A stretch of DNA of 61,566 nt, filler included, from Sphacelaria rigidula (Eukaryota), in NCBI GenBank assembly GCA_964200075.2. It is 10 parts of 10 records of this genome, joined end to end, with 100 filler letters (N's around TTAATTAATTAA, not from the genome) between each part and the next. Parts side by side here need not be neighbours in the genome. Positions count along the whole stretch, not along the records: positions 55,501 to 61,566 come from CAXNAA020022467.1; 9 more parts are not named here. One strand, 5' to 3'. Position 1 is the first letter of the stretch; each line of letters opens with the position of its first letter. This document shows, one piece after another, positions 12,335-61,566 of the stretch. Both the position numbers and the translations under genes were made by a program. Below the pieces are notes generated by a model. That model was not told the DNA's origin and did no database searches. It was given only the letters and a program-made list of their open reading frames with translations.

Positions 12335-12405
12335 TGCTCCGTCTCGAAAGGGATGCGTGGTCAATTGGTCAAACGACTAAGGCAAGCAACACATGAGAAC
12401 GCCCC
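12335..12405 (+). repeat. Structured C-tract-associated repeat, short subfamily A
   Basis: tgctccgtctcgaaagggatgcgtggtcaattggtcaaacgactaaggcaagcaacacatgagaacgcccc; the contig begins inside it. Confidence 0.85.
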
Positions 12406-17499: not shown

Positions 17500-17568
17500 G
17501 GCGTACTCATTTGTTGCTTGCCTTAGTCGTTTGACCATTGACCACGCATCCCTTTCGAAACGGAGCAC
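17500..17568 (-). repeat. Structured C-tract-associated repeat, subfamily A
   Basis: Reverse complement nearly identical to the 56351 copy; G-rich tracts on both sides. Confidence 0.9.
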
Positions 17569-17986
17569 TAGGGGGGGGAGGGGGGGTACGTTTCATGGGA
17601 AAGTACGCCGTTTTGACGCTCTCCACGACAAGAAGCAGCGGCAACGATTGCGTTTCTTCCAAGCGATTTGGCACCGGGGAAGAGAAATAACCTCATTTTC
17701 AAACATCGTCATTTGTTTTTATCACATATCCCTGTCGAGCAAAGGTCTGGGATGCTTGATATGAAACATTGTGTGGTAGGGGACGTTGACGTCGGCCGAT
17801 CAGGGTCCGGGACAGTGGGCTTGTCCTTGTTGGCCATAATCGAGGACTAGGATATTGGCGAAAATGTATATCTGATTCGTGTTTTCTTCCGCCAAAGGGC
17901 CGGGACAACACGAAAGAAAAACAAAATGCCGCCCTCGCCTCCATCGCAGCAAACAACACAGAAGAAAAACAAATCACCGTCCTCAC

Positions 17987-18255: not shown

Positions 18256-18323
18256 TGCTCCGTCTCGAAAGGGATGCGTGGTCAATGGTCAAACGACTGC
18301 GGCAAGCAATAAATGAGTACGCC
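18256..18323 (+). repeat. Structured C-tract-associated repeat, subfamily A
   Basis: Same ~69-bp core, followed by a C run. Confidence 0.9.
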
Positions 18324-18934
18324 CCCCCCAATGGTCACAAGACGAAGGCCAGCAACAAAAGAGTATCCCCCGGCCCCAAGCGCCAGACGAGCCGCCGATC
18401 GNNNNNNNNNNNNNNNNNNNNNNNNNNNNNNNNNNNNNNNNNNNNTTAATTAATTAANNNNNNNNNNNNNNNNNNNNNNNNNNNNNNNNNNNNNNNNNNN
18501 NGGGGGAACACAGAGTTTCTCCTCTATGAAAATGCCGGTCTTCCTAACTGCAAACACTTTGGTGCCCATTGGTTTCTAATAAGAACGTTAAATTGTCGAT
18601 TTGTGATGGTACTGTACTGATTCGCAGATGCCAATGACAGGAAAGATTCATAGTCCTGTTCGACAGTACCTTCGAACGCTTGAACGGACCCAAAGCAGAC
18701 ACTTTCCCTCGGGTTAGGAGAGTCATTCAACATCTACTACGCCTTGGTGTATTTTGGCTACATGCCACATGTCGGCCCAGACTCTCCAGTACATGGGCAC
18801 CCCCCCCTTGAATAGACCACTAATTCGATTTGCAGATGACGGACCAACTCGTCGGTGCCGAGCCTACAACCGTTCTCAGGCTGAATCACTTCGCAGAAAG
18901 CTCTTGTCAGATTTCGGCTGGTAAAGCCGCTTAT

Positions 18935-23671: not shown

Positions 23672-23913
23672 CTGCAGAAAAGAACCCGACGGAGATTGCT
23701 GTAGGTCGGCAACACACAGGACAAAAAATCTGCCCTCAATTCGTAAAATTACGTGTCAGACCACGGTGGAGATACTAAAAAAATTACATCTCTTTCCCTG
23801 GTTTTTTAGCAACTGACCGTTTGTCACTAAAAATGCAAATTCGGTCAAGAAAAATACTGTGACCATCGGGAAACGAAAACATGCCCTGGGAGTCATCATA
23901 CGATGGGGGGGGG

Positions 23914-23982
23914 GGCGTACTGTTGTGCTGCTTGCCTCAGTCGTTTGACCATTGGCCACGCATCCCGTTCGAGACGGAGCAC
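23914..23982 (-). repeat. Structured C-tract-associated repeat, subfamily A
   Basis: Same core, abutting a G run on the plus strand. Confidence 0.88.
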
Positions 23983-25399
23983 CGTTCCTACTCCTAATAG
24001 AGCCACATTCAACATTCCGGCGCTCATTACGTTGCTTCCATACATTGCACGAAAGCCCTCTACATGTTATCCCCGTCCTGTTTCACCGTCTGTGTCCAAC
24101 ATTCATCTCGTAGTATAGCCATCGTTTTCTCCCTACTTTCTACTGCATCGAACGATTTCATGACACTTCGTTTACGCCCCGCATTTCCCGCTCTAGCACA
24201 TCCCGTTCTTTCTTGTATAGTTGACATTCTGCCACTATATGACTTCTGCTCTCTATTCCTTTGCCACAGGGGCAGTTTTCTCCATCTACTTACTCCTCCT
24301 TTCGGAGACCGGTATACATCTTTCTTCTTTTTGACAGGTTCACGTTCCCCACCCGGAATCGCAGTTTAAGAATTTTCGCAGCGTCTATTGGGGCATGCAA
24401 ATATGCTTTCATCCCAATCCCCTCTCTCAATCACCCGTATATCTCCAGGTGTTTTTCCTCGTCTACTTTACGATAGGGAGGAGGGGGGGGGGGGGGGTTT
24501 GGTTGCACTAAAAAAGGGTCATGGGGGGGAGGGGAAGGGAGGCGGGGGGGGAAAGGGTGTGGAGGTGGNNNNNNNNNNNNNNNNNNNNNNNNNNNNNNNN
24601 NNNNNNNNNNNNTTAATTAATTAANNNNNNNNNNNNNNNNNNNNNNNNNNNNNNNNNNNNNNNNNNNNGAAAGGTGTAGACTGGTGCCCAGAATTAATGG
24701 GACGACAACACACACACCACTAGTACATTCTACAGCAACTACAATCGCAGTGAGAGCACGGAATGAGGCGAACAGCTATGCTACAACACCGCCGAGAACG
24801 GACCGAACGAGATCAACCAACGCTACTACAGCTACAACATCAAGATCGAGCGTGGATCCAGCGAGATCAACGAACGCCACCACAACACTACACAATGTTA
24901 GCCAATGAATGATTGACTGGTAGCAGGGCCATAAAACATGGTACTTCCAACAACCGGTATATTTGACAGCTATGGGCGCGCCTGACGCCCCAAAATGGGC
25001 AAAAAAAAGTGTCAACGACCAATACAACGAACAGGCACGAACAGACCGAGTTCTGGGGCTTATCCAGGCTCGTGGGGTAAAATGTGCCTTACGACATCGG
25101 AAGAGAACAGCATGCATCCAAAATTCACATCGAGAAAAAGTGGACTGCATTCTAAAATCAGAACCCTACCGCTATTTCCGTTGTTGTTCCTCATATATTA
25201 CATGCCACTGCGTCGCTTTTCGTCCGAGCTTGCGATACGCTGGCATGCAGGGAGGCTAGTCGGGTTGACTCAACCCAACGCACACCGAGAACACTCGGGC
25301 AAGGGCGGTACATACACTCCCTGAATAAAGTGAGGCCTTGGTAGACCCCAATTCGGCGCCTGTGGCGCTGATTTCAACAAGAACGCGTTCTGCGCACCC

Positions 25400-25870: not shown

Positions 25871-25925
25871 ACGGCTGGATCCCTGGGGGGGTCAGTTAAA
25901 GTGCGACAATCAATCAATGAATCGA
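25871..25925 (+). mobile_element. Non-LTR (LINE/SINE) 3' end with (CAAT)n tail; other copies 59228-59315 (-) and 61320-61398 (-)
   Basis: acggctggatccctggggggtcagttaaagtgcgac followed by aatcaatcaat in three copies. Confidence 0.7.
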
Positions 25926-26324
25926 ATTCAAAATCAAAATGGACAGGGTCAGTGTCACCCGCAATTAGACGAATACTTTCTATCGAATTTTTCATGGCCC
26001 ATAGCACATTTGTGCAAAATTTCACGATCTAACTCCTAAAAACGGCGTGAAGTTTTGCGCGTTTGGGCGATGAAATTTTCCGTGCCACGGTGAAACCGCA
26101 AACTATCTGATTTTAGTATGAAAATGGCTTTTTTGGGCCTTCTTTGACGTGAACATAAAAGTTGAAGCATCAGTTTTATCGAGTTTGACCACAAAACTTT
26201 GTGGGGCCCTTCCTTGAGTCATGCGGCGACAGCTCGTTCGCCACAAAAAATGAAAAAAAAATCGCAGTGCCGGTTTCCCGGGATCCCAGAATGGAGACTA
26301 CTTCGAAAAAACCAAGGTTGTGTC

Positions 26325-30835: not shown

Positions 30836-31547
30836 CACTTGTCGTTGCATTTGAGACCCGCGCCATCAATCGCCGACAGCAAGGGTCTTGTGGCTTTCAC
30901 GCAACGCTGTCGGTCGTACGGCAGGCAAACCCGATCATAGCTAGCTTTCGTTGCGACCGTACTCACTCCCGACCGGAGGTCGCAACGGGTATGAAAGCTA
31001 AACAGTTGGTTTTTCTCAACTTCATTCACACAATTCAACCAGGAAAGGTGGTCGCCTTGGATCCGCCTAAACACGCAAATATACCGTCGAACAGCAATAC
31101 CAAACGTTTCTGGGGTTGACATCAGCCAGTCCGTGGAGAACGGAACAAAAATCGACAAGTTACCGTTCGTATTAGAAAACAATGCACACGAAACGCTTTG
31201 CAGGTTGAAAAACATGCATTTTCATGGAGAAGAAACTTCCCGTACCCCCATTAGTGTTATGTGCGGTCGAAAAACTCTACTGGCCTTCATTAATACCTGG
31301 CGGGGGGACAGGGAAGACGTCCTCCCTCAGGTCTCGAGCGTCGTTTGAATTGTGTGAATGAAGTTGAGAAAAACCAACTGTTAAGCTTTCATACCCGTTG
31401 CGACCTCCGGTCGGGAGTGAGTACGGTCGCAACGAAAGCTAGCTATGATCGGGTTTGCCTGCCGTACGACCGACAGCGTTGAGTGAAAGCCACAAGACCT
31501 TTGCTGTCGGCGATTGATGGCGCGGGTCTCAAATGCAACGACAAGTG
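30836..31547. mobile_element. Young MITE with ~200-bp near-perfect TIRs; left end at the contig edge
   Basis: 30836-31038 is the near-exact reverse complement of 31346-31547. Confidence 0.9.
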
Positions 31548-31689: not shown

Positions 31690-32662
31690 GCCACACCAGC
31701 AACAGTTAGGTCACCACCATAGGTATCTTTTTTCACTCCGCATGTCAAATAGGTCTCTACAAGTGTTTGATCTCTCATACACCCCCCTCAACTGGCGTGT
31801 GGTAGGCTGTTCTCGTCGGGCACCCAGAGGGTCAGATGTGGGTGAACTCAATGATGAATAAGACCCCCCAAGATCAAATTGAATCTATTTGTTATGGCCG
31901 CACCACCGTCCTTGCTGGCATATGTGTGACAGAGAACAACAGTATATATATTTTTCTTCACTCCGCATGTCAAGAAGGTCTCCACAAGTTTTTGATATCT
32001 CACACACACCTTCCAAGTGGCCTGTGGCACGCTCTTGTGGCCGGGCATCAAGATGGTCACGTGTCATGTCGGGTTAAATCAACGATAAATAACACCCCCC
32101 AAGTTCAAATTGGATTCGTCATTATTGCCGCAGCGCACCGTCCTTGCTGGCATGTGTGTGACAAAGAACAGTAGTAGCGGTGACGGGAACATTACTCTCT
32201 TTTTCAACGACATGTTTTTCAGCGCTCAGATGCGCGTCCTGCCGAAAAAGAAAGGCAGAGAGAAATCGATCTTCGAACTGGTGAGCTCCACAGACAAGAA
32301 GAGACGAAATCTCTCCGCAGCTCGATAATCTTTGGGAGGCTGTGCGCAGCAACATAATAACGTGCCTACCGGCATATGATAAATTGGGTACATGCTGGTA
32401 GCATGCATGATGCCAGTCTCTTGAGCGATTGGTGATCGCCGAGCGAGGACGCACAAAGGACACGGGCGAGGAGCTTCCTCTCTGTCGTTGCTTCTCTCTC
32501 TGGTGGCATCGTCATTGACACGCGTGTACACCGCATTCGTTCGGTGCACCTAGCCACAACTGATTCACTGTTGCAGAGTTTTTGGGAGAAAGATGGTTTC
32601 GCTCTGTGTAACTGTTTCGCGCTATCTCTGCAAAAAAGGTATGCCACTTGAACCTCATTTTA
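31690..32662 (+). mobile_element. Non-coding interspersed element with an internal ~220-bp duplication; second copy 42172-42890 (-)
   Basis: Long collinear similarity from gcaacagttaggtcaccaccataggtatc to gccacttgaacctcattt between contigs 6 and 7. Confidence 0.85.
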
Positions 32663-32989
32663 GAGATCGACCCCCATTTTCCAGGATCCACTGGTAAGTG
32701 CCTCTCTCAGTATTTCGACTCGACCGAGTATCATTCTGTCGGCCTCAATTTGCGTCCTCAGCGGCCACGTGCCTAACAATGGATAGGAAGCCACCCGTGA
32801 AATACATGCACGTGCGCGGATGTGTCGTGTCCTTAGCCTACGGTATTTCGTCAAGTAGTATACGCGGAGCACATGCGTACATGCTCGCGCTTGTGAAATC
32901 GCCTTGTAACGCTGGTACACGGCGAACAGCACACAGAAGGGCGAGCGCGATGGACTACAACGATGCTTTGGAGCTCCCTGCATGACGGT

Positions 32990-34711: not shown

Positions 34712-34914
34712 CTGAAATTCAAAAATACACAGGAAGCACGACAAGCAGAATCACAAACGCGGCCATGCATGCAAATGGCGGAGCGGCGGCGGCGGCAGCA
34801 TTAGCGCGGGGGACAGCCGGGGTAAACATCCGAAAGGGCTTCAATAGAACGTGCTCATCTTCACTTGGCGATACGACGATAAAAGCGTGGGAAACACGAA
34901 GAGCCATCGGAGAA

Positions 34915-35480
34915 ATGATCGGTCGCATGGTTGTTTGGTTGTTTGGTTGACTGACTGACCAACCGAGTGATTGATTGATTGCTTGGTTGATTGGTTGATT
35001 GGTCGGTTGGTTGGTTGGTCGACTGATTGATTGATTGATTGGTTGGTTTATGCGTTGATTGATCGTTTCTTGATTGCTTGGTTGGTTGACTGATTGGTTG
35101 GTCCGTGGATTGGTCGTTTGGTTGGTTGGTTGGTTCATCGATTCGTTGATTGGTTCATCGATTCGTTGATTGGTTGATTGATTCGTTGATTGATCGTTTG
35201 ATTGATTACTTGGTTGGTCGACTGATTGATTGGTTGGTGGATTGGTCGTTTGGTTGGTTGGTTGAATGGTTGGTTGGTTGGTTGAATGGTTGGTCGATTT
35301 TTTGGTTGGTTAGTCGGTTGGTAAGTTTATTCGTTGATTGATCGTTTGGTTGATTGCTTGGTTGGTCGACTGATTGATTGGTCGGTGGATTGGTCGTTTG
35401 GTTGGCTGATTGGTTGGTTGGCTGGTTCGATCGATTGACTGCTTGATTAGTCGGCTGGTGGATACGTGGGTTGGTTATTC
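34915..35480. repeat. Complex (GGTT/GATT)n tetranucleotide repeat tract
   Basis: Direct observation; source of the NQPT-rich ORFs. Confidence 0.95.
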
Positions 35481-38400
35481 GCTGGTCTCTCACACGAAAC
35501 AATGTCTCTCACCGATATCCAGTCGCGGTCGCAAGATAAACGTGCTGTCTGTACAATATACCCAACGTGAACAGACAGAAAACATCCGTTGAATCAAAAT
35601 GGCGAGAAGAACGGGCAAGACAACACAAAAGGGAGACACCGCTAGGTAGATACATGAAAAAATTGCGAGAAATGCGAGGTAGATAAAAGACAAAAGATTG
35701 CCTTCTCAAAGCCGCAAAATCGGCCAAATATTGATCCCCGGACTCCTCGCCCGTTTGATCTTCCATCACAGGAGCACATTCGTGAAAAGACACGTTGCCT
35801 GTGGGTCAGCCACATCTTGTGGGTAAATTCTACTCCCGTAAAATCACAAGATAGTCATGAGCGAGGACGAACGGACAGCTTTTACCCAAGCGCGGATAAA
35901 AGGCGGTACGGGCTCTCCAAACTCCTGAAGTGCTTCTAAACTGTGAACACAGTTGCTACATCGGACACGCTGATAGCACACACATATCTACATCGGCGCG
36001 GCGGGATTAACACTAGGAAAATTACGGAGACGTGCCTCATTCACTTTTTCGGCAATAGTAGCGTTTCTCGTCAGCAGACATGTAAAAAACTTGACATGTA
36101 CTTTGAACTGAACAACACACAAGTAGAACAGAATACATCTTTCTACCTATACGTATCTTCAAAGGAGTGTCACAATAGTCCGACCGCAAGTGCGCGAGAA
36201 AATGGATTTACGATTCATTAATCAGCGATACATATTTCTCTCACCGTACGATGGGGTTTTCGTCGGTAGGTTGAAGCCCCTGCACCGCCCCACTCGCACG
36301 GACCCTGAAGATTCGTTGGAACTCGCCGGTGATTGTTTCCAGTACTGCATCGACCTCGCTTAACGGGTTGTCGTCGCAGATCTGGGTGAAACGGATATCC
36401 ACAGGAAAGTCCACGTGCGTATGTGCGTACGTGCGTATGCGTGCTGGTGTGCTTTTGCGTGTTGATGTGTTTGTTGGGTAGGGGCGTGAGGAGACAAAAG
36501 CTGCGGTTGCGATGTCTGCACACGACTTATAGAGAGGAAAATGTATCGTTTACTGTCTACAACGTTTCTGCTGGTACACAATGGTCAAAGCCTTGTTCTA
36601 ATTCCTGTGACCAAAAAGTCTATTTTATCCTGAAAAAAATAAAAGAGAAATAATTCAGTATACGACCATCTACTATGACTCACTTCATTAGTCCCCTACA
36701 CCACGACAATGTGATTCTAACCTCGGTTCTTTTCACTACTACTCCCGCACTGTACCTACCCATTACCCTGTGAACGGGAGAGGGAAAAATGAGGAGGAGA
36801 TGGAGGGGAGATGGGGAGGAGGGCGTTCTCATGATCATGCATGCCATAGTCGTAAGACCGTTGACCTCGCACCCCTACAAAGCCGGGACGGAGCACGCCG
36901 GGNNNNNNNNNNNNNNNNNNNNNNNNNNNNNNNNNNNNNNNNNNNNTTAATTAATTAANNNNNNNNNNNNNNNNNNNNNNNNNNNNNNNNNNNNNNNNNN
37001 NNTATGTCGTGGGTACACAAAATTCGACTTAACGGTCGACGACGGAAAGGGACTGCTGAACCCCTCTCGCGATAAAAAATAAAGGCAAGCACCGCAGAAG
37101 GAATCTGGGTACTAAAATCTTTTTTTTTAAAGAAGCTCCTGTGTTGACCTTCCGCCCGTGTGACCCCGGCTGGTGCGCCCATAAATATATATATATATAT
37201 ATACCGAAAGGTGTAGACCATCGTCCAAAATAGAAGGGACGACAACACACACACATCGGACGTTTTTCTCGCGGGGTGTATTCGTCCATGTCGTCCGCCA
37301 TTACCAGAGTATATCAAGTCGCGTCATTTTCGCTTACTCATGTACTATAGCTTCTTCGTGAAATGTCGAATGTTGTATAGGTATATGTCGGAGCGAATTT
37401 CAACCACAGTTGTACATGAAGATGTTGCTCTTTCGTAGGGCAAAATATCAACTTCTGAGCAAACTCCTACTTTTGGAACACGAGCACACTTTTTCTTTCA
37501 TGTTTCAGCTTTTTTTTAAATCAGAACGCAATGTCTTCCGCGTTCTTCACACTTTTAATACGTGGAACAAAATCAATTGTGTTTCATCCACCATTCCGCG
37601 CTCTCATCGTTTGCGTTCCTTGATACCTATCATGCTACACCCATGCCAGATCTTCCCTCTTCTACTCATCACATATAGGACAGTTTCATAACCGATACAC
37701 ACGTCAAATCTCTGGCCCAACCTCTTGGTAGGAGTCATTACCTTTATTACTCTCTCCCAAGTTACATTAATTCTTTTCCGCGCCTTTCGTAGAGGACGGG
37801 GCCGCCGATAGGCGGCCCCGTCCGATCCTTGTATATATATATGTGTGTATCACTCGCCATATCACAGATTGAGTTGCAAAGCCGACAACACTTATTCCCA
37901 GCTGAAATTTCACCACAATTGTCCTGCAGCAAAGAGCACGAGTTGGGCACAGAGATATAGATACACACTGCCGTAGTTGGGTATGATGTATGTCTTGTTG
38001 GTGTTTGAACTTGAGCATCTTCTTCCATGGTCGCAGAGTCGCGCGGTGCCGGAACCATGCGGGGTATGGTGCGGGCAATAACCGGCGGTTTACTGCATAC
38101 ACAACCATGGACAGTGCAGGCAGACAAAGCTGCGAACTTTGTTCAAGTCCTTTTCACGTCGCACTGTAAGCAGAAAACATACATATAGCTCTGCGCTACC
38201 TGTACTGTACTTTGCCCGTTTCCCTTTCACGTCCTACCGACGCAGTGGTGAGCAAGCTGCAAGAACGAGCGTCGTGATGCATATTCAGTAGCTGACGGTA
38301 TATAACACCTCCATGCACCCAAAGTTACAGGCACCCGCTTTGTTTAGCCATACGTGGCGCATATTCCGCGCTAACTCTGCAGTATATGGCACCGCACGTA

Positions 38401-39758: not shown

Positions 39759-40509
39759 TCAAAAACACGCAGTGGATAAGTAACTAAATACGTGAGACCT
39801 TTATGATTCTATCATGAAATAATGTCCAAGGGTCACTTTTTTAGCGCCGTTTTCTTCCTGCATATGGCACCTTGATCAAGTATACTCGCATTCAGTCTAC
39901 GAGTACAGTATGTATAATATTTGTTTTGGGTTTAGGTGGTGAAGATTTATGCATCGGTTGAAGGTGGATAGGACGATGACGTATTGGGGGATTGGGGCGA
40001 GAAGGAACCTTGTAGTTCGGCGAATCACTTCGTCTCAAAATGACATATGTCCGAGATGACGTATACCATATGTTCATGGTTGGCGTGTACCCTGGTGTGT
40101 GCCTCTTTTCTTGGCGTACACCATTTTTTCTTGACAGTACACCATTGCACGGACCTTGTTAATTCTCTCTATTAATAGTTTACTGGCCGGTTTTGGTCGG
40201 CATACCTCATTTCATAACACAAAGCTGTAGCACCCATTTTCTGATCAATCAAGTACCCCTAACAACATCTACGATTTTTACAGGGAGATGATTCTAAAAC
40301 ATATATTAATGCGGGCTTGTACACCTTGAGCCACCTACGGTAACCTTCCCCTTGCGTCTAAGATATCTGCTACATCGAGGAGTCTCGCGCACACCACACC
40401 CAAGAAGATCCGCCTTGTTTTCTGTTCTTCTGTGCGAGTAGTTCGTCCTTACATTGCCATAATTTTCCCATATCTTACGGCTGCTTCGATGTATCTTCGA
40501 TACTCACAG

Positions 40510-40741
40510 ACTCTCCGACTGCACCGCGACGGAGAACCATCCGGCTCGTTTCAAAACCGAAAGACATATCGAGGTCACTCCAAGCCCGTAACTCGCGCTG
40601 TGTACGGGTCATCCAACGAAGTTCTGTATAGCTGCTCGCGCGACACTGCCGTGCGACAATGGAATCGCTTGGGAGGAGAGGAGGCTCTTCAGGTGTTTGA
40701 AGGGCACACATTGGCGTGCACTGCGGTGGGGCTCAGTGCAG
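40510..40741 (+). CDS. WDR31: WD40-repeat protein exon (WDR31-like)
   Basis: tcacAG acceptor, G|GTactg donor; YRGHSKPVT...LYSCSRDTAVRQW...FEGHTLACTAVGLS (GH...W WD40 blades). Confidence 0.8.
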
Positions 40742-41298
40742 GTACTGCATGATTTCCTAAGAAGCAAGGATGATCACGTGCTTTGAGCAGTATTGGAGCA
40801 GACAGCCAGTCGTTGACATCGCCGTCCCCCCCGGCGAAGCAGCAGATGAATAAGCGTTGTATAGTTCTTGTCCTCGTCACACTGTGTTCATACCAGTATG
40901 GTATACTGGGTCGCCAGCTGCCTTTAATCTTGCCATTCCCGTACGTATTGGGTGCGAGAAATACCCGGACAGTGTGCATAGTTGACATCACCAGCGCTGG
41001 AACCCAGCGCGGACCTTCACGTGCGGGTCATCGGTATATACAGGGCACGCGCCGCACCGAGTCCAGACAAGTACGATAGGCAATATATATATATATATAT
41101 TTGTCTGAATATTTGTGGTACTCATCTTGCAAAACGATGTCATCAAGCCAATCTCCTTTGCACGATAACAAAGTCTCACTTGGTAGAGCTCTCTCTATCG
41201 CCCCTCCCTTTCCCCTCTTATCGACCACCATGCTCCGCAAACCACACGCGACCACCCAAAAAACTGTTCTCGATCCTTGGTGGCATACTGGCTCCAAG

Positions 41299-41558
41299 AC
41301 GAGAAGACTCTGTGCTCGGGATCTCGTGATGCCAGCGTCCGGCTGTGGGACGCGAATACCGGATATTGTCAGAACTCTGTCATGGTGTCGCGCAACATCG
41401 TGACGTGTCTCAAGTATGCCCCTGCTTCCAGCGGCGGACCCACGTCATCATCGACGGTGGTGGTGCAGGGAGGAGAAGACCTCAAATTGCGGGTGTGGGA
41501 CTTTCGAGAAGGAGGGCAGACCCCGGCCCTAACAATACAGGGATACACGTACTTCCCT
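41299..41558 (+). CDS. WDR31: WD40-repeat protein exon (WDR31-like)
   Basis: Phase-1 join to the previous exon. DEKTLCSGSRDASVRLWD...VSRNIVTCL...VVQGGEDLKLRVWDFR matches the WDR31-type SRNLVT and QxSED motifs; donor GTgagt. Confidence 0.82.
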
Positions 41559-42171
41559 GTGAGTACTCACATGTCCTCCACTCTGAGTGCTATGCGCAAT
41601 GCTTCTTCAGATCGACGTTGGGTGGATTCGAGCGCACGATAACGTTGTGCGTTAGTCGCAAAACATGCTCGTTTGCCGGAAGGAGTCCAGTGCGGTCCGG
41701 TGGGGAGCATGTCTCGGTACAAGGGGCGTTTCGCCTTTGGGGCTATTGATAGTTCTTCACTACAGGCTTTGCATTCCATCGCGCAACCGAATATGCCCAC
41801 GACATTTTAACGTTTTGATGAGGAATGCTTTCGTATCTGCAAGTGAAGAAGATCTCCGCTGCATTGAAAACCAACGCCTTCTAGAAGTGGCCTCAACAGT
41901 TGTATTAAACAGGGGATGCTGCAAAATGGGGAATAAAACCTTTTTATGGGAACGAAAAAACAAATGGTGCTCGGAATCGTGCGAAACGGTACATGCCGTA
42001 CGCTGACGTACGACGGGGAACTATCCCGAAAATGCAACAGCCCGAAAGGCACCAAACAGCGGTAACAACTTCTAGCTCTCGCAAGTTGCCGACAAGTCGT
42101 TCCAAAAACCATCCTCAGACGTTCATCAAGATCAACACTTACCTAATCACCACGAATAACAGTGGATCCTG

Positions 42172-42890
42172 AAAAATGAGGTTCGTATCAAAAATGAGGT
42201 TCAAGTGGCATATCTTTTTTGCAGGGACGACCCGAAACAGTAGCACAGAGCGAAACCATCTTCCCCCCCCAAACTCCGCAACTGTGAATCGTCAGTTGTG
42301 GCTAAGTGCACCGAACGACTGCGGTGTACACGCGTGTCGATGACGATATCACCAGAGAGAGAAGCAACGCCAGAGAAGAAGCTCCTCCTCGCCCGTGTCC
42401 TTTGTGTGCCCTCGCTGGGCGATTACCAATCGCTCGAGAGACTGGCATCATGTGCGTTACCAGCACGTGCCGAATTTCTCATGTGCCTGTAGGTATCCCC
42501 AAAGCACATCGAGCTGCGGAGAGATTTCGTTTCTTTGCCTGTGGAGGTCATCAATACGAAGATCGATTTTTCTCTGCCTCTCATTTTGGACAGGACGCGC
42601 TTCTGTGCGCTGAAAAACTGAGCAATGTTCCCGTCACCGCTACTACTGTTCTCTGTCACACACATGTCAGCAAGGACAGTGCGCTGCGCGGCAAAAATAA
42701 CAGATGATCCAATCTGAACTTGGGGGGTGTTATTCATCGTTGATTTTACGCGACATGAGCACAAGAGCCTGCCACAGGCCAATTGGGGTGTGTGTGTGAG
42801 AGAGAGATCAAAAACGTGTGGAGACCTTCTTGACATGCGGAGTGACAAAAGATACCTATGGTGGTGACCTGACTGTTGCTAGCGTGGTGC
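42172..42890 (-). mobile_element. Second copy of the element at 31690-32662
   Basis: Reverse-complement similarity over ~700 bp. Confidence 0.85.
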
Positions 42891-43336
42891 AGAGGGGTGC
42901 GTCAGCTGCGATCTGGAGCTGTCGTTGCACTCCTCTTCTGGCTTCCATCTGCACAGCTAGTAAGCACATGTTAGTATATACCCGAATTCGAAACAGCTAC
43001 TGTATGAAAACAAAACAGCTCGGTTTTCGCAACTCCGTCGAGATAACTGAAATGGCTCTTCTTACCCGNNNNNNNNNNNNNNNNNNNNNNNNNNNNNNNN
43101 NNNNNNNNNNNNTTAATTAATTAANNNNNNNNNNNNNNNNNNNNNNNNNNNNNNNNNNNNNNNNNNNNCCGACCTCATGATGATGAGTACACCCCCCCCG
43201 TCCCCCCCCCGCGCGCGCGCCCCGCCTTTGATGTGACAGGTACGGATAGCTAGAATGGACCTCGAAATGTTTCCCGCCCCCCACCCCACCCTACCCCACC
43301 CGCCCGTCTCATCCGTCGACTACCCGAGACATGCAG

Positions 43337-48918: not shown

Positions 48919-49036
48919 AGGAACGGCCATACCACGTCAAAAGCACCAGATCCCGTCCGCTCTGTGAAGTTAAGCGGCGTCGGGCAAGGCTGGTACTATG
49001 GTGCTGGACCACGTGGCATGCCCTGGTGCTGTTCCT
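48919..49036 (+). rRNA. 5S rRNA-derived sequence (diverged copy, pseudogene or SINE head)
   Basis: 118 nt: aggaacggccataccacg...gcaccagatcccgtccgctctgtgaagttaagc...ggtactatggtgctggaccacgtggcatgccctggtgctgttcct, with closing helix aggaac/gttcct. Deviates from the usual 5S consensus around the C box and has no T-run directly after. Confidence 0.85.
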
Positions 49037-49043
49037 TGCCGCT

Positions 49044-49125: not shown

Positions 49126-52100
49126 CTTCCTAGTATCTGACTTCAACCGTGAAAAGCGCGAGAACGTGAGTTGACGCGGTGCGGGAGTGCTGATAGTCAT
49201 GACCCAATCCGTGAGACCAAAATGCAAGGCGTGTNNNNNNNNNNNNNNNNNNNNNNNNNNNNNNNNNNNNNNNNNNNNTTAATTAATTAANNNNNNNNNN
49301 NNNNNNNNNNNNNNNNNNNNNNNNNNNNNNNNNNCTTGGGCTATTGTTACTGAGAATGCTCACTGGGCAACACGATCCGCCGGCATTGAGTCCAGCACGT
49401 GTCGCGGTCATCGGCGCAATATCAATTGGGCGATTGGTACTGAAAATTCTCACTATGCAACACGATCCGCTGGCATTGAGTCGCGGGCAGTACATTGTTC
49501 TACCCTCTCCGGCAGGCGCCGAGATCTTCAGGACAAATGAAAGCTCGTTCGCCGACCCTCGTTCGTGGCGTCAACTAGTTCAAGAGAGCGACCAGGAATA
49601 TGTAAACCCACGTTCCAGAGATCCAGTATCTCAAACTCGAGGTTCCCCGCATATTCGAACGTAAAATTACTGTGAAATATACCAGGAACCTCGAGTTCGA
49701 GACACCTATTCTAATTCCGAATCATTTTGACATCCGTTCATTTCCCGAAAGGAATTCTCCATCCACTCTGAAGTTCATAACCTCCGAGTAGAGGGGGGAA
49801 TATCGAAATAGCGGATGGTGTTTTCACTTTCAAGACCAAAATATCGCCATATCGCGACCGGAGCGTGCATTAGCACCTATAGTTCATAATTACTGCGATT
49901 GTTATGCAGGTTCCCACGACCCATCCTCAACAATACCTGCTCCCGCGAATTTTCAAACCCCCTGTTCTCTGTTACCGATACTGCTGAAATAGAACGGGGT
50001 GGTCTCCGCGACGCTAATTTTCTCGAATCCGCTTTTCGCTATGAACGTTTTGATTCAGTGCAAATATGCAATTATATCTGTGGGCAAGATGGCAAACACT
50101 ATCACCATAGTTTTTTCACGGTTCGGACGAATCATCGCCAGTTCGAATCACCGAATCCACGCTTTTTGCAGGCCTGATTGCTCGAAAGAGAAAAATCTTC
50201 ACCGCTGGTCCAAAAGGTCTCCACGCAAATTTTGCGTCATTCCACGTGCCTGGGCAGCGCGTACCTGGGTTGCAACGCTGAAATAAAAACCTAGGGATGG
50301 ATTCGTGCGGTACGCATCAATTTCACTAAAACCAAGTAAAATCCAGACGAATCGTCAAGTAGTCCGACCCTTGTAATTTTTCGTTGGATTAGAGACCTTG
50401 AACACAGCGGGTGAATTATCATGATTGATTTTGATTGATTGGTTGTCGCACTTTGTGCAGGATGAAAGCAAGTATCCCAATTACGGCGAGGGACCCATCG
50501 CCGGAGGGGGGGCGTCCTTATTTTTGCTTGCTTTAGCCGTCCGGGAGGGGCAGGGCATTTTTCATGAGAGGTACCTCCCACGGTCGTGGTAATATGGCGC
50601 CGGATTGCACCGTCACCAGAATAATGCAGAGCCGACAACAAGCCGGCACACTAAGCCCCATCGATGCATACCCGAAAATGATCCGCATCGTCCACGTCTG
50701 AGAGTCGTCCATCGGGCACAAGGCATCCCGTTGTCGCCAGTCGATGAGTGGAGAGCTTCGAAGGCGAGACGGACGCTCGCCAACCACTTGAACCTCCGTC
50801 ATCTTTTAGGTCACAGAAGCTGATCTAAGAAAACATCTGAACACGCGCCAGGATCACTCGCCCGTCGGCGGAGTAACCGCCGGGTGGAGAGACCGTGACC
50901 CTGCGTGCGTGCCGCAGCAAAGCACGGTACGGGAACACTCGGATGCCATAAGTGCACAAATGAAAAAGGTCGGACGGTGGAACGATTGCTACTGAAATAT
51001 TCGCACAGGTCCTCCAAGGATCAAGCAGAGGCAACGCAAAAACGTCGTCGTTAAAAAAACGGTCTCTGCGCCGTCGCATCGGCGCGGATCACCGTGCACC
51101 AAAACCCAAGTCCTATGGCAAAAATTAAAACAAAACACAAGACCGAAAACCCAAACGATCACAGGCGAAGCATATGTGTAGACCTCACTACCACAGGTAT
51201 AAAGCACACACCCCCAGCCCCCAAGAGACCGATATACTATACAGACAATCACAGACACCGACAACAAAGAATACACACCGAGGAAGGCTACAAAATACGA
51301 AGAAAACCGAGAAGGAAGACAAAAACAGGTCAGCCCCCCGAACACCGCGCAATAGAGGATAACTGAACCACGCATTACGAGGCGCCTCGTACCCAGAACC
51401 CACGGCCCAAGTCCGCGACTCAGTGGGCCAAACAGGGATACCTTTTGTGCGATATGCGCCGAATTTATCACACAACTCCATACTCCGGCATGGAGCGCAA
51501 CACATCCGCAAACTCCGACAGCAGCCGTCCTCACGGATCGCTGCCGCCCCCAACACCACAACGCGTCGGCGCCGACATGTGGAGACAAATAATTCACCAC
51601 GACGACAGAAGGATTCAAAATTCTTCTTGACAGGCGGGTAGGAACCGTCACCCCAACTTCCGGCGGGGCAGACTGTCGTGGATCCAAAGTGAGGTTTAAC
51701 TTCCCGCCCCCCCCTCCGTCCATTTATCACGGAGTTGTCACATCCTTCACACCGACAGCGTGGAGGCTTTCCGTAGACGCCTGGAAAATTCACACGACCC
51801 AATATCCCACAGCCAGGCGGAAGCCTCGCGTACCGCCGACGGAATCTCTCCATCCCCGACCCACGGGACGGGGCATGCCGCGGTGAAACAGTCCCGCCGA
51901 GGTATCTGCACCCTCCGTCCATGTGCTCCGAGCGATTTCCTTGACCTGAAGGCCGCCTGCACAGGGAGTCAAGGGTTACAGGTGACGGGCGCGGCAAGGA
52001 CACGGTGAGCGCAATGAAATATTGAAGAGAGAGAAAAAAAACAGCGCGAGTATCGTGTGCATCGCCGAAGGTGTGGCGCCGATGCAGTGTGCATCACAGC

Positions 52101-53149: not shown

Positions 53150-54350
53150 AGATGGTCAAGTTTTCACACGTCGGACGAAGACGAGTATGAATCGTGGCTT
53201 GCACTCGTTGGGCTGCTCGTGGTGAAAAAAAATGAAGAGGGCGAGTACTCGAGTCATTGGTCGTTGTGGGAATACATGAATGGGGGGGAGTACTCGAGTC
53301 ATTGGTCGTTGTGGGAATACATTAATGGGGCGAGTACGCGAATCATTGCTCGTGGTGAAAAAAAATCACACGACGGACTAGTCATTAGTCGTCGAAACGA
53401 CTGCACTCGTGGACGTTTTTTAAAACACAACGAGCATGACTCGTGTGCTCTAGTCATCGTTTCTTTTTACAACGAGCAACGACTCGTGTGCTAGAGTCAT
53501 TCAGTTTTTTCACAACGAGTAATGACTCGTGTGCTCGAGTCATTTTTTTTAAGAACGAGCAATCACTTGTGTACTTTCGTCATTATTTTTATACAGCGAG
53601 CAATGACTCGAGTGCTCGCCCTCAAAAAATGTAAATGTACTGCTCGAGATATACTCTCCGCTGCTTTGGTAAGACTCTGATCAGTATGTGTGTGAGGGTG
53701 CTTGGATAAACTGAAAACTAACTTTGGAGCTTGACGCTTGCACATGTGCAGACATGCATATTAACTTGAAGATTCTAGGTTCAAGATCGTCGAAGGGCTC
53801 ATTACAATTATTTGCTCGTCGGATTGCTGGCTACTCCACTCAAGTCATTCATCATGAACAATGACTCGAGTGCTCGCCCTATTATTATTTTTCACAGCGA
53901 GAAATGACTCGAGTACTCACCTTATCAATTTTTACCGCTAACGAGCAGCCCAACGAGTGTCAGTGCCACTAGTCATACTCGTGCTCGTCCGGCGTGTCAA
54001 AAAAATATAGGGCGAATACTCGAGTCATTGCTCGTAGTGGCAAAAATTAGTAGGGCGAATACTCGAGTCATTGCTCGTGGTGGCAAAAATATAGTAGGGC
54101 GAGTACTCGAGTCATTGCCCGTGGTGGAAAAATATAGTAGGGCGAGCGCTCGACTCACTGCTCGTGGCGGAGAAAAATCATAGGTCTAGCACTCGAGTAA
54201 TTGTTCGTGTGGAAAAAATCATGACTCCAGTACACGAGTCGTCGGTCTTGGTGAAGACAAATAAATAACTCGAGCACACGAGCCGTACTCGTGGTGTTTT
54301 CAAGAAACATTAACGAGTGCACTCGTTTCGACGAGTAATGACTCGTCCGA
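53150..54350. repeat. Arrays of ~43-bp gagtactcgagtcattgctcgtgg units in alternating orientation
   Basis: Best-preserved units at 54001-54170; inverted copies at ~53430-53625 and ~53855-53990. Confidence 0.8.
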
Positions 54351-56350
54351 CGTGTGCAAGTTTTCGCCGACAAAATGTACACACAGCATACGCAACTACT
54401 GCAGTGCATCCACCCCTGTGCTCAACTCCTGCTCAATGCTGCAGGGTTGCGACCGTAGCCAACGATGAGTGGTGTGCACTAGTTTGCATGATCATGTGGA
54501 CGGATGGTATGTGGCGTGGTAGTCTATAAGCTAGGGGTCCAGCACCTCTTCGTGCCTTTCCCCCGCATTTTTGTTAGAAAAAGGTTGGCTTTACTGTTTT
54601 TCACTTCTTCTCCGCTCGCCACTAAGGCCGTGTCTTCGCATACCACATTTGGATCGAAACGTGCAGTGGAAAACAGAAACCCCGACGAAATAGGTCGTAA
54701 TTTGAACCAGCTTAAAAAGAAGCCACGAGAGCTGAATAGCAGGAACGGTAGTGGAAGGACAAGCCTACCAATGTGACCACGGGTTCCAGAGATCGGACAA
54801 ATGTGCGCAAACAATAAGTTAATACAAAATAGGTGAAATCACGGCTTATCAAATCTGACTCTTCCTTTTCCACCGTACATTTCCCATATTAAAATGATGT
54901 GCGAAGGCACGCCGTAATGATGAAACAATCGTTGATGCCAACTAGGAGCAAAACGCGGTGGACATATGCGATGACAAAAAAATTTCCACCACACTTTTTC
55001 GAGCGACAAAAACATACACGAAGGAATGTCATCCATGGGAGGGTGTTGACGTCGAAACATGATGTTTTACTGCTGGTAGACACCATCCGCCTTTGCGCCT
55101 TCGGCGACAACCCGCGGCGGGCAGGAATCGCTGAACCAAACCTGATTGGCCCATCTGTACCTCTCCATACATAAGGGTCGTTTCCCAGTTGAGACGAACG
55201 CCTATTCCGTGGGAACATAAAAGGTGAACGCCGTTCGCTTAGCGGTGTTCACTGACTGCAAAAGGAACAGGTACGAAAGGAACAGGTACGGTAGGTGCTG
55301 GTATCTTGAAATACCGTGGTATCGTGGGTATCGTAGGTATGACACTTGAAAATACCCGATTGGGTCGGTATCGGTAGGGTATGAGATGTCCGAAATACCG
55401 NNNNNNNNNNNNNNNNNNNNNNNNNNNNNNNNNNNNNNNNNNNNTTAATTAATTAANNNNNNNNNNNNNNNNNNNNNNNNNNNNNNNNNNNNNNNNNNNN
55501 CCCCCCCCCGCCTCTCTTGCTTAAAAGGGGTGCGCGGGCCACCGCCAAAAAACTAAAGCAAAACAAAAATTTGTCCCCCCCCCCCCCCCCCCCCAAGCTT
55601 CGCTGTGGATCCGCCCCTCCCATGGTTCGCCGTGGATCCGCCCTTGGCAGAACTAGATCGATCGCGTGCACCGCCCTTTCCACTGGCGATATCACCACTG
55701 GAAGTCGCCTCGGTTTCCCCAGAGGACGGCGGGGGTAGCAAGCGGCGACCCTGGCAACCGCAGCTCAGAATGCAGTTTCGCAAACACGTGCATTTTTGCA
55801 GCGGTGGCCTCTTTCCGGCGCCTTTACCGGGTTATATGAGCACCTCAGGGTCCGCACGTTTCCAGACACATCAGCGTACGTGTGGCTTGATAAATCAACA
55901 ACGATGCTGTCCCGGGTGAGCACCTCTGCCTCTCTGCTCGCCGGTTTGATGCCCTCCTTGTGATGAGTCTTTCTTTGTGGTTCAACACCCCACCCGCCCT
56001 CCCCAGCCCGCACGCAGCGAATTATACCGTCACACCCCGCCGCGTCCACCACCGCCGCCGCCGCTCTCCCACCCCTTCGTTCGCCTGCCACCAGTTCAGG
56101 CTGCTGCGCAGGCCCTACTACCCAATCGCCCACGACACCTGTGCCGCCAGTATTTCCCGCCACACGTTGCCCGCTTGCAGTCGTGGGTGTGATTTCACTA
56201 AGGGCAGACGATATTCCTGCCCCATGCGTGACGATCAAGGGTATAGTATTGTCGTCGAGTAGTACTCGCTTGAAAGTACCGCTGGCGAGGTAATTCCGGG
56301 CGTGCTTGCTTGTTCTCCCGTGGCAAGTCCTGCAAGCCTGCCTCCCCACG

Positions 56351-56419
56351 GTGCTCCGTCTCGAAAGGGATGCGTGGTCAATGGTCCAACGACTAAGGCA
56401 AGCAACAAATGAGTACGCC
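56351..56419 (+). repeat. Structured C-tract-associated repeat, subfamily A (reference copy)
   Basis: gtgctccgtctcgaaagggatgcgtggtcaatggtccaacgactaaggcaagcaacaaatgagtacgcc. Confidence 0.9.
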
Positions 56420-56509
56420 CCCGGTGCCCCTCGCGCAAGTGGTGGCGGACAAATGCCCCCACCCCTGACCCAGCAAAAAAAGTTATACCCCCCCCCCCCC
56501 CCCCCCGGT

Positions 56510-56857
56510 GAAGCGCAGCCGTCGATGTGGGGTGGAATCTTGTGTCGCACTTTTGCAGTTTATCCGTTCGCGCTCGTTGCTCATGCGCCTTGATAACACC
56601 CACGGTGTCGGGATTACCGTACGCAAGCGCCCCCTTCGTCCCGGCATCCGTCCATTCAGTACGCACCTCGCCCGCATGGTAGGCTTCGAGTGCCGGGTAT
56701 CCGCTCTCCGTGACGGCCTGAGGAGGTTTTCTGTGCACCTCCACTGCGTAGTCCACGACGTGACCCTGTGCAATGTAGTAAGGATCAAGCTGTTCGGCAT
56801 CTGGGCAGGCAGATCTTCTCCACTGCACGGCAAGACTTTTGTTGGAGTGCCCCATAC
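56510..56857 (-). CDS. Possible orphan exon, unknown protein
   Basis: ttgcttactcAG acceptor, then a stop-free protein-like frame GMGHSNKSLAVQW...LDPYYIAQGHVVDYAVEVHRKPP...; 3' boundary not determined. Confidence 0.35.
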
Positions 56858-58090: not shown

Positions 58091-59559
58091 TGTGATTCGT
58101 ACGTATTTGTCCCATGATGACCTGTATGACCCGAGTATCCGTACATGATCTCCTTGGGCACACCTATGTAATCAGAATCAGGTGTACACGAAACGTCAAG
58201 AAGAACCTGTGTATCATCATAACCCGTACAAGATACCTCCCTGGTGATCGATGAGATCCGGATCACGAGGACCATTCCATAACTAGTTGAACTGTATCAC
58301 CCGGATCGGGTACACTTGTGTGTTCACACTTGAGCTGTATGACGCGCATCCTAGAGAAAGTGATCCGTCCGACGTGTGCAACGCTTCACCAAAGTCTCCA
58401 AAGGTACTCACAATACGGTGACGCACTCCAGTGTCCTCTGGTTTCAAAGGATATTTTCTGTGCTGAGGACCCCAGATTATCCGGAATATCCAGCATCGGG
58501 AATTTGGAGAGCACGTTCCTGGCTTCACCAGTGTTCTGAGATCCCGGTCCCCCATACAGCATTCACGATAATCATGTCCCAAAACCAGCAGCTTGCTCGC
58601 TGCATGGTCGGCGAGGATGGATCACTGACGATCCTGAGCAACCTGAGTGTCCGCCACGCTGCATCCGCGAACCTAGACTCTACAGCTCGAGCAAGAGCAC
58701 ACGATATCGAGTATTCCGTACAATCATGGCGATCCAAAAAATGTTGAGTATTGCAGGGGACCCAGAATACCGAACATCATATCGAAAAACACTGAGTCAT
58801 TCCAAGGTGAAGTATATTATACAATGGACACAGTACAGGGGGAGCGATGTGCAATGTAGCGTCAAAAACGTGCTCGAGGTAAGCTAAACCTGCCATCGGC
58901 AGGACCAAGATTCGCCCAAACGTAACCAAATTTTTGCGCCTCTCTCGCGTATACAGCTGTGTGGTGGTAACGAGCGCACACCACTCATGATGTATGACCC
59001 TAGTAAAGAGGTGAACACATCGAAAATGCACATTTTAAGGTGGCTCAAAATCTTCGTAGAGTTATCATGCACCATATTTCTCAAACGCATCGGGAGGTGT
59101 TAGGGGTAAGGTACCGTGCCCGAGGTACCCTGGGTTCTCCGAGTGTTCCAAGAAAGATCCTCGGGGTATCGACGGCCGAAAATAACGAGTGTCCCAAGGT
59201 ATCAAGGGCGCCCGAAAAGTACTGAGTTTGATTCGATTGATTGAGTGATTGATTGATTGTCGCACTTTAATTGACCCCCCCAGGGATCCAGCCGTGGTTG
59301 CATGATAGACGTACCCAAGAATAAACGAAAGTGAAAACACTCGCTGAAGAAAAAGAAGGAACTGTGAGTATTTTACGGTGTTATGTGGTATGGGCAACTC
59401 CCAGAATACCCGCATTCATATCCCACCCTGCCTTACCATACCCTGAGTACTTTTGAATAACCTTATATCTAGAGTCTGGTGATAGCGTATGTACACTTGT
59501 CTGTCATTCCATGTCCTCCGTTTGTTGTCGCCTCTCGGTTGCGGCGTTGGTGTGCGCAG

Positions 59560-59676: not shown

Positions 59677-61566
59677 GTGGGAAAGAAAAGGGCTACACGT
59701 CGGTACAATTACTCGAGCATTTTTTCCAAAGGTAGGGTATGGGTATGGGTACGGGTACGGGTACGGGTACGCGTATGGCTCAGTATTTCAGATGCCCTGC
59801 AATACTCAGTATTGTTTGCAGTCGATACCCGAGGTGCCCTCGAGTTCTCCACACTTTCGGCGGTTGATATCTCATTCATTCTAGGGTACTCGGTACTGCC
59901 AATAGCATTAAAACTCGGGGTACTCTGGAGTATGGCACCCCACCCTCACAATCTTTGTAATTTTGTAGTGTGACCACAGGTTGATGAGTTAGGTGATTGG
60001 CTGTTATATTAACTTGTCAACAGCGGACCCAGCCGTGGTCACAAGGTATTATCCTAACTCTGTACCGACATTCCTACATCAGTCTCGTAGTACACACGAC
60101 GTGCTGTAGAGAGATTGATTGATCCCTTGAGACCATAGACTCGTCCCCAGGAAAGAAAGGGATTTAAATAGCGACGAAAAAAACAAATAGCGGCCGCGGC
60201 CGTGAAAGTGTTTTCATCGGCCGTGAAAGTGTTTTCATCTCCGTGCACCCAAAGCAAGGCACGCAGCGCCAGAAAGAAGGCAAAACGGGAGGTGAAGAGG
60301 GGTGAGGCCTGCGTAATATATCGCCCCCAAAAGAAGCCGAGAACATATGTATACAGGTGAAGCACCTAGCGTCGCTTGTGAGCGGATGAAGATCTTCACT
60401 TTCTGCGCGACCCGAACCAGCAGCCGATATATTTGCAGCAATACTACGGTAGCTTCACTCGGACCTGTTCGAGTGACGGAAGCATATCCCGTCCAACGAG
60501 CACCCTCCCTGGTTTCGTCTAGCACTATCACGGAGGTACCGTTAACAGCAACAGTCCCAGCCTAACCGATGCTGGAGAGAGAAACCCGGATCCGGCGGGG
60601 AAAATTGTCCCAGCGGCGCCCAGCGGCGCTAGCGCATTTACTAGGCGAACCGGAAGCTTATCCTCAGCAATTCCATCCTCAACGCGTTCCAACCCATTAT
60701 CTTTGCGTAGATGGCTGTTCACGTCTCGTGAGAGACCTTCAGACCCCGAACAGTTCGTAGTCAGCAGTGATTGGGAATCTTAGTTTGGGGCCGACGCCAT
60801 GACAGGGTAGTAGTTGCAGCTGCGATCCAGAGCGAAGCCGATACCTCCTTGCCATCTCGGACTTGCTACTATCGCGCCTGCTACTCATCGTTTCCCTGCG
60901 CGCATCGCGTGGAAATACGATTTAGAATGCCAGTGTTGGTGTGGGTCTACGGTAGGGGTGCACATTTTCCCCCCGAAGCTCTGCGCTGTCGGAGCCTCTG
61001 GATGTCAAACATCCGGGCCCTATTGTGCAGCCTCACAAGCGTTTTGGACTAAAACTTGCACCCCAACCGTAGGATCCTTCGTTAATGAATCAGCCACATG
61101 AAACCCAGGAGCCCATGGTCGCTCCTGGACTGTAATCACAAGAAGTCAACACCTAAAAACTCAATAACAAAAGGGTTATGTTTATTGGTGCGTTCCAGGC
61201 GGTAGAAGATACCTGTTACCGGTGAGGCTTCAGTCATGACCTTGGCGTGCTGGTCAGTCGACTTGACAAAATCGGAGCGAACCTTCTTTCCCCCAACCGG
61301 CTCACGCAGAAAGTGGTGTTTTGATTGATTGATTGATTCATTGTCGCACTTTAACTGACCCGCCAGGGGTCCAGCCGTGGTGTCATGATAGACGTACCGT
61401 GTTGCACCACGATATGCTCACTGTTGACGCTTCTTGGCGAGTTGCACGCCAAACAGAAGTGCTTCTCTCCCTCCCCCCCCCTTTGCCTGGTCCGGCGAGA
61501 ACCCGGTGTGCTCCGTCCCGGCTTCGTAGGGGCGGACCCCCGATGGGGGTGGCGACGCTTGGCGAT

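Follow-up and report, generated by a model that had tools for sequence, protein, structure and literature searches.

SINEs that carry a LINE-derived 3′ tail form 'stringent' LINE/SINE pairs, such as UnaL2 and UnaSINE1 of the eel, and LINE tails themselves are as a rule truncated at widely scattered points. Waldo, Mino, Kibi, Koshi, and Dong are insect non-LTR retrotransposons that target microsatellites. Retrozymes and the hammerhead-bearing short repeats of Penelope-like elements are small and non-autonomous, and are proposed to work by way of an RNA structure. Among the tail types described for SINEs and LINEs we know of no C homopolymer. For brown algae, published genome reports list almost no SINEs beside large 'unclassified' repeat fractions, as in Nemacystus, where RepeatMasker assigned them 0.0024% (PMC6418280), and in Ectocarpus the most abundant unclassified repeat is 'Sower', at 1.2% of the genome (PMC3145265).

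Here we analyze a 61,566-nt stretch of DNA from the alga Sphacelaria rigidula (hereafter the window), which consists of ten 6,067-base segments of separate contigs joined by N spacers. It contains a family of short repeats in which a single ~70-nt 3′ module, combined with any of several 5′ parts, stops at a constant 3′ end and runs into a homopolymer-like tail. The family differs from known kinds of element in its C-homopolymer tail, in having no small-RNA head, and in a commonest form of only 72 nt. On balance, we think that it is probably a SINE-like or LINE-tail-derived family of non-autonomous retroposons for which C:G homopolymer tracts act as both tail and target.

Results

A dispersed repeat family with two main subfamilies

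Searching the window by blastn with the 56351 copy and the B copies as queries recovered everything that an earlier, sequence-only reading had listed: five copies of subfamily A, three of subfamily B, a variant at 61486, and a 3′ fragment at 43169, on six unlinked contigs (Table 1). Identities were 89–96% for the five A copies (E 4e-24 to 5e-29) and 78–80% for the three B copies (E 3e-14 to 5e-18), and copies lie in both orientations on six of the ten segments (2, 3, 4, 6, 8, and 10). The existence of the family is thus confirmed, far above chance.

Table 1. Members of the repeat family and other features of the window, with positions counted along the whole window.
Feature	Position	Strand	Details
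A copy (the finding under study)	69-nt core 56351–56419; blastn match 56351–56422	+	Reads GTGCTCC to GAGTACGCC; 3 nt of long-form extension kept at 56348–56350; short C-rich tail 56420–56435
A copy nearest consensus	17500–17568; blastn match 17497–17568	-	C-rich tracts on both sides
A copy	18256–18323; blastn match 18256–18326	+	C8 tail behind
A copy, 5′-truncated	18329–18386	+	blastn 79% over 61 nt, E 7e-8; nhmmer E 8e-8; abuts C8 tail of 18256 copy (head-to-tail pair); own C-rich end
A copy with long-form part	23914–24016 (core 23914–23982; blastn match 23911–23985)	-	C11 tail 23903–23913; ~34 nt of conserved 'long-form' 5′ extension at 23983–24016
A copy at segment start	12335–12403; blastn match to 12405	+	First base lost at contig edge; short tail
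B copy, full-length, ~138 nt	8436–8573; blastn match 8433–8533	-	~65-nt 5′ part missing from A, then common 3′ module; C-rich tail 8420–8435
B copy, full-length, ~152 nt	21785–21936; blastn match 21832–21936	+	C-rich tracts on either side
B copy, 5′ side cut by contig end	36821–36902; blastn match 36815–36902	-	CT-rich tail 36790–36820
Divergent variant	61485–61566; blastn match 61485–61531	+	C-rich tract before; cut by contig end; differing middle part with its own 6-bp hairpin
3′ fragment at contig start	43169–43210; blastn match 43169–43200	+	nhmmer E 0.064; ends …ATGAGTACA, then long C-rich tail
Weak, old-looking member	55510–55594	+	Between C9 and C20 runs; nhmmer 55519–55567, E 0.025
Weak 3′-end-like fragment	50504–50542	-	C7 behind; nhmmer E 0.1
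Example C/G homopolymer runs	2036–2064, 12217–12234, 24483–24497, 55575–55594, 56488–56506		
Second short dispersed repeat	25871–25938, 59227–59315, 61319–61398	-, +, +	
5S rRNA gene	48919–49037	+	Rfam 71.5 bits
tRNA-Ala (CGC) gene, 85 nt	11483–11567	+	Rfam, ARAGORN; long enough for an intron
WD40-repeat gene exons	40330–41639	+	Best high-identity relative named from the brown alga Pylaiella (exon 41187–41639: 55% over 62% of query)
Dispersed ~750-bp repeat	31949–32696 and 42157–42854	Inverted, two segments	79% identity; no Pfam match to its ORFs
203-bp inverted repeat	30836–31038 and 31345–31547		98.5% identity; ~300 bp between; at segment start
Proline/threonine-rich PT-repeat ORFs	34722–35508	-	Pfam PF04886; internally repetitive stretch

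We gauged the abundance of the unit from the contigs of four public sequencing runs, placed on positions 56251–56520 at a likeness of at least 80%. The 72-nt unit was matched by 39,149 of the 4,559,685 contigs of run X1 and by 45,883 of the 5,464,531 contigs of run X4, which puts the repeat on ~0.8% of the contigs of these two DNA runs. At the same threshold it was matched by 2,040 of 295,880 contigs in X6 and 2,355 of 364,895 in X7, two runs that are only guessed to be RNA and whose matching contigs give nothing firm on expression. Summed depth was ~1.1e7 on the core versus ~24 on the unique flank at 56314–56331, a ratio that is not itself a copy number; we take it only as a sign that copies number at least in the tens of thousands. 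Depth climbs at 56341–56350 and drops at 56422–56430, which places the borders of the unit at ~56348/56351 and 56422. By likeness, the matching X1 contigs fall into classes of 5,390 (at least 99%), 12,206 (95–99%), 16,084 (90–95%), and 5,469 (lower), and only four positions carry a variant in at least 5% of the depth. The population of copies is thus very large, and its variation is star-like. At four of the segment ends (12335, 36902, 43169, and 61566) a copy is interrupted, as an assembly is expected to break at a high-copy repeat.

A fixed 3′ end, a C-rich tail, and several 5′ parts

The 3′ end is constant across copies, which finish in GAGTAC(G/A)CC; behind it comes a C-rich tail whose length varies. 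The next 15 nt hold at least 60% C at seven of nine copy ends, versus 1.35% of background windows, and in 1,486 X1 contigs the C-run continues behind 56422. C-runs also precede many copies: one stands directly in front of the unit, at 56352, in 420 X1 contigs, and in the window the 20 nt before four of the eight complete 5′ ends are at least 70% C. Some copies are joined head to tail with a few C between them (56 X1 contigs 'go back 71', with several similar classes). Such tandem joins have periods of 69–75 and number tens of contigs each, and those 56 contigs, of the 39,149 matching in X1, make up the commonest of the joins listed.

On the 5′ side the family is modular. A is the bare module of ~72 nt, long A is the module plus a 5′ extension, and B is the module plus a different 5′ part (~65–80 nt, distinct from A, beginning near TTCATG(A/C)GACTCG); within the common module the chief difference between A and B is a 5-nt indel in the first hairpin's loop, with scattered substitutions besides. 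The statement in the earlier reading that A copies start at the closing stem does not hold for every copy, because the 23914 copy reaches into the long form and because, of 6,291 X1 contigs lying only partly on the stretch used for matching, 829 at 56348 and 219 at 56350 carry a related, conserved upstream sequence, which is that of the 5′ flank of the 23914 copy. A decayed second unit upstream of this extension was considered and dropped, as 55 of 500 shuffles scored equally. Among the best-supported loose ends, a set that leaves out 485 others, the 5′ borders fall within ~7 nt (56348–56354). One of the six A copies in the window is truncated at its 5′ side: a kept 3′ end with a missing 5′ end is seen at 18329–18386 and, more weakly, at 50504–50542. 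The C-rich tails, the preceding C-runs and head-to-tail joins, and the longer form are all features that the earlier reading did not contain.

C or G homopolymer runs of at least 7 nt number 42 in the 61 kb and are up to 29 long, and ~13 of the 42 adjoin members of the family. Because such runs are common in this DNA, some of this adjacency could be an effect of target or neighbourhood and not a tail, and because several of the runs lie at contig ends, part of them could be artefacts of assembly or sequencing. Of the six copies testable at both ends, two have flanking duplicates beyond those in shuffles, both low-complexity and C-rich. The 17500 copy is flanked by a 16-nt near-duplicate (as long in 0 of 200 shuffles) and the 21785 B copy by an 8-nt duplicate abutting both ends (matched as well in 15 of 200 shuffles).

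Just upstream of the 17500 copy, positions 17571–17610 of the minus strand read …CATGAAACGTAC and then a C-run. This looks like the 3′ end of another, decayed family member, and thus like a stacked insertion.

Two further kinds of repeat lie in the window. Arrays of 43–45-nt units occupy 53161–54356 in both orientations, each unit with the palindrome CGAGTACTCG and, behind it, a C-rich or T-rich stretch; in carrying GAGTAC and then C they are reminiscent of the way in which family members end. The second short dispersed repeat (Table 1) has a GATT-rich part, an internal C7 run, and then a part starting AGGGATCCAGCCG, and its copy at 61319–61398 lies just upstream of the 61485 variant. When its right half (59282) was aligned to B, 8–14 of 1000 shuffles did as well for two B copies, and 68 and 248 of 1000 for the other two targets; we rejected it as a further family member, the likeness to B being weak.

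No coding capacity and no small-RNA head

None of the 359 stop-to-stop ORFs of at least 70 aa in the whole window has an RT, transposase, or Rep domain, and no RT sequence lies beside any copy within it. Together with the high copy number, this bears out the earlier description of an abundant, non-coding, dispersed, and apparently non-autonomous element. Also as described, the copies have neither long terminal inverted repeats nor poly(A), and the reported lack of Pol III boxes agrees with our finding no tRNA-, 5S-, or other Rfam-like head on the module or the B copies. In particular, Rfam at E <= 10 returned no tRNA, 5S, 7SL, or other small-RNA head on the copies in the window, ARAGORN found in the window only the tRNA at 11483, and alignments to the window's own 5S and tRNA genes did not rise above shuffles (best p 0.04–0.08). 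We also considered the segment GCGTGGTCAATGGTC…TAAGGC, which we take to resemble the D-arm of tRNA-Leu/Ser; an origin from such a tRNA found no support from Rfam or ARAGORN.

The element is short, non-coding, dispersed, and high-copy with a variable simple-sequence 3′ tail (C-rich, not A-rich), as a SINE is. By the strict definition it falls outside the classical SINEs, because no Pol III-type head was found, and it behaves like a SINE or like an offshoot of a LINE tail.

Pattern scans of metagenome contigs and viral contigs yielded no copies. Loose-pattern matches in genome contigs (at least 121, each a single one, in unrelated bacteria) we judged to be chance and set aside, such a number being roughly what 596 billion bases would give. 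A literature search on C-tailed retroposons, on brown-algal SINEs and repeats, and for four exact strings of the repeat, with Repbase and Dfam outside its range, turned up no published description of the family, which may nonetheless have been catalogued before.

A shared predicted fold that tracks common descent

The sequence-only reading had proposed that the subfamilies differ in sequence but keep one multi-stem RNA fold, and had taken this as the mark of a structure-selected element. The stems that this reading names are present, the minimum-energy fold of 56351–56419 is the one that it drew, both substitutions at 23914 preserve pairing, and RNAalifold gives a single consensus fold for A and B on a structure-fitted alignment of eight copies. 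Its separate hairpin at 61528 is also there, although it overlaps the position of the A hairpin only partly. When a covariance model was built from the five A copies and the proposed structure, its only further matches at E <= 0.01 were to the three B copies, which scored 51, 32, and 21 bits, with the 36821 copy the closest to A among the B copies (51.4 bits).

Selection for this structure is not supported by the same eight copies, a sample that gives the covariation tests low power. Compensatory change on both sides is seen in none of the 20 pairs, 94.9% of cells are paired versus 94.5% in shuffles (181 of 500 shuffles being as high), the covariation score is 0.095 versus 0.101 in shuffles, and the covariation term of RNAalifold, +0.55, is a penalty. 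In the closing stem all of the variants disrupt pairing, and of the 17 variant cells in stem columns, nine keep the pair, all via G.U, and eight break it. The first hairpin is the best kept, being fully paired in seven of eight copies, with three pairs varying on one side. Of the four variants present in at least 5% of the sequencing depth, three fall within the second hairpin's loop, at unit positions 37, 38, and 40, and one at position 44, where G.U becomes G-C, a placement that is suggestive, yet equally typical of subfamily markers.

Folding energies are likewise ordinary. The 56351 copy has a z-score of -1.21, with 23 of 200 shuffles folding as well; the other A copies range from -0.21 to -0.70, the B modules from 0.02 to +1.07, and the full B copies stand at +0.72 and -0.56, while the opposite strand folds worse than its shuffles (+0.66 to +1.84). 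No copy matched any RNA family or ribozyme in Rfam (hammerhead, HDV-like, twister, hatchet, and pistol included), either at the gathering threshold or when hits with E <= 10 were admitted, and fitting an HDV-like fold by hand failed because the strand order does not fit. The claim of a structure-selected element is therefore not supported: there are no compensatory pairs, pairing equals that in shuffles, and the eight copies, for all the little power that they afford, show no significant covariation, which the earlier reading had itself named as evidence against its view. We attribute the shared predicted fold to the common descent of the copies; in a young repeat family, a neat common fold is no evidence of selected structure.

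Discussion

The reading that we favor, and hold to be somewhat more probable than its negation, is that of a C-tailed retroposon. Retroposition by target-primed reverse transcription is favored by the fixed 3′ end with its variable simple tail and by a truncated copy with its 3′ end intact, as well as by the modular 5′ parts, the star-like high-copy population, and the stacking of copies on tails. Transcripts ending in the module and a C-run would serve as the template for reverse transcription at nicked C:G tracts, where the target's G-run at the nick would prime on the C tail. The outcome would be C-runs on one or both sides of a copy, with new copies stacked onto the tails of older ones, and such priming would explain the C-runs on both sides of the 17500 and 21785 copies. 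The RNA intermediate, the priming at C:G tracts, and the RT partner are steps that we infer, the priming by analogy with A-tailed elements, which enter T-rich nicks. Several observations speak against this reading. The window holds no RT partner and shows no clean target duplications, the unit has no small-RNA head, only two of the six testable copies have flank duplicates beyond shuffles, both C-rich, the listed 5′ borders are clustered (56348–54), unlike those of usual LINE tails, a C homopolymer is not known to us as a SINE or LINE tail, and C/G runs are frequent in this DNA at large.

The same short copies would need no independent 72-nt element if they were the 5′-truncated tails of an autonomous LINE, a Penelope-like element, or a longer SINE, with the long form as the start of the path to a full-length parent. 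The conserved 5′ extension in the 23914 copy and in 829 + 219 of the 6,291 partial X1 contigs, the 3 nt of it retained by the 56351 copy, the truncated copy at 18329, and the different, longer 5′ part of B all fit such a parent. We nevertheless consider it unlikely, because the 5′ ends gather at 56348–56354 with no broad spread among the loose ends listed, hundreds of contigs have a C-run directly before the unit, and no copy in the window has RT sequence beside it. Spread at the DNA level, in the manner of a satellite or minisatellite (through unequal exchange, through extrachromosomal circles, or in the course of repair at C:G tracts), would dispense with an RNA intermediate altogether. Although head-to-tail joins with periods of 69–75 in tens of contigs each, the partial dimer at 18256–18386, the C-tracts on both sides of some copies, and the 43–45-nt arrays, whose units also have GAGTAC and then C-rich sequence, are in keeping with such a process, five of the six A copies and all of the B copies in the window are single and dispersed in both orientations, the top listed tandem join accounts for 56 contigs versus 39,149 matching (in contigs that cannot show long arrays), and the unit is asymmetric, with a fixed 3′ end and a tail. 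DNA-level spread is thus distinctly unlikely in our estimation.

A structured functional RNA, whether a selected recognition structure or a self-cleaving RNA of an unrecognised kind that creates the sharp 5′ border in the manner of a retrozyme, would find in that border a ready product, and the consensus fold common to A and B, a first hairpin intact in seven of eight copies despite a 5-nt loop indel, and the confinement of the variants of at least 5% to the second-hairpin loop (37, 38, and 40) and to the change from G.U to G-C at 44 would all suit it. With no compensatory change in any of 20 pairs, pairing that does not exceed that of shuffles, a closing stem in which all variation is pair-breaking, 8 of 17 stem variant cells breaking pairs, ordinary folding z-scores, no ribozyme or other Rfam match even at E <= 10, and an HDV-like strand order that could not be fitted, we regard it as very unlikely. 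The suggestion of an HUH or single-stranded-DNA element in the earlier reading found no support. Complementarity of the unit's two ends over 6 bp and hairpins near its 3′ end might recall the terminus of a Helitron or other HUH element, or a MITE, but the unit runs from GTGCTCC to GAGTACGCC and has no 5′ TC with 3′ CTRR, its flanks are C-rich with no insertion between A and T, the complementarity extends to six end bases only, short of the ~10 bp or more of MITE inverted repeats, in an asymmetric element with a one-sided tail, no ORF in the window encodes a Rep, helicase, or transposase, and folding of the opposite strand is poorer than that of its shuffles (z +0.66 to +1.84). We rejected both the Helitron terminus and the MITE, and think an origin of this kind extremely improbable.

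The 70-nt module might be a working RNA device, either the minimal recognition structure of the RT, here a hypothetical enzyme that would use C:G homopolymer tracts for priming, or a new RNA that processes itself and so fixes where its 5′ end lies. We give this proposal little credence; should any part of the module be functional, the first hairpin would be the best candidate, as the part that the copying enzyme recognises. If the proposal is true, the 72-nt C-tailed unit would rank with the smallest and most successful of known retroposons, and no abundant SINE-type element would have been described from brown algae before it. The retroposon reading, if true, would itself make a tiny element a noticeable share of this algal genome and would account for breaks in its assembly. 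The unit and its tails are worth masking in annotation, and could serve as insertion markers.

Comparison with known systems

The kinds of element that come closest are LINE-tail SINEs, truncated LINE tails, and microsatellite-targeting non-LTR elements. Like LINE-tail SINEs, the repeat is short, non-coding, very high in copy number, and dispersed in both orientations, and it sets a conserved, hairpin-bearing 3′ module with a simple tail under varied 5′ parts, with few diagnostic subfamily positions. Unlike them, it has no tRNA-, 5S-, or 7SL-like head that we could find, its tail is a C-run, its commonest form is ~72 nt, and no partner LINE was seen. With 5′-truncated, 'dead-on-arrival' LINE tails it shares a constant 3′ end, the loss of some 5′ ends, a longer form, and non-coding short copies, whereas the best-supported of its 5′ ends lie only a few bases apart and no RT-coding continuation was seen.

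The resemblance to Waldo, Mino, Kibi, Koshi, and Dong lies in a tail whose sequence is that of the target tract and in simple repeats on both sides of copies. Those elements are autonomous, with an endonuclease and an RT, and take di- to tetranucleotide targets, whereas the tracts here are C:G homopolymers or CT-rich, and their targeting is a proposal of ours. As among retrozymes, the repeats are small and non-autonomous and some stand head to tail; unlike in retrozymes, no hammerhead or other known ribozyme motif was found in them. Like Sower, by the description of that repeat, the family is an unclassified, short, most-abundant repeat of a brown alga. A retroposon with a C tail and no head would point to uncharacterised copying machinery that prefers C:G tracts.
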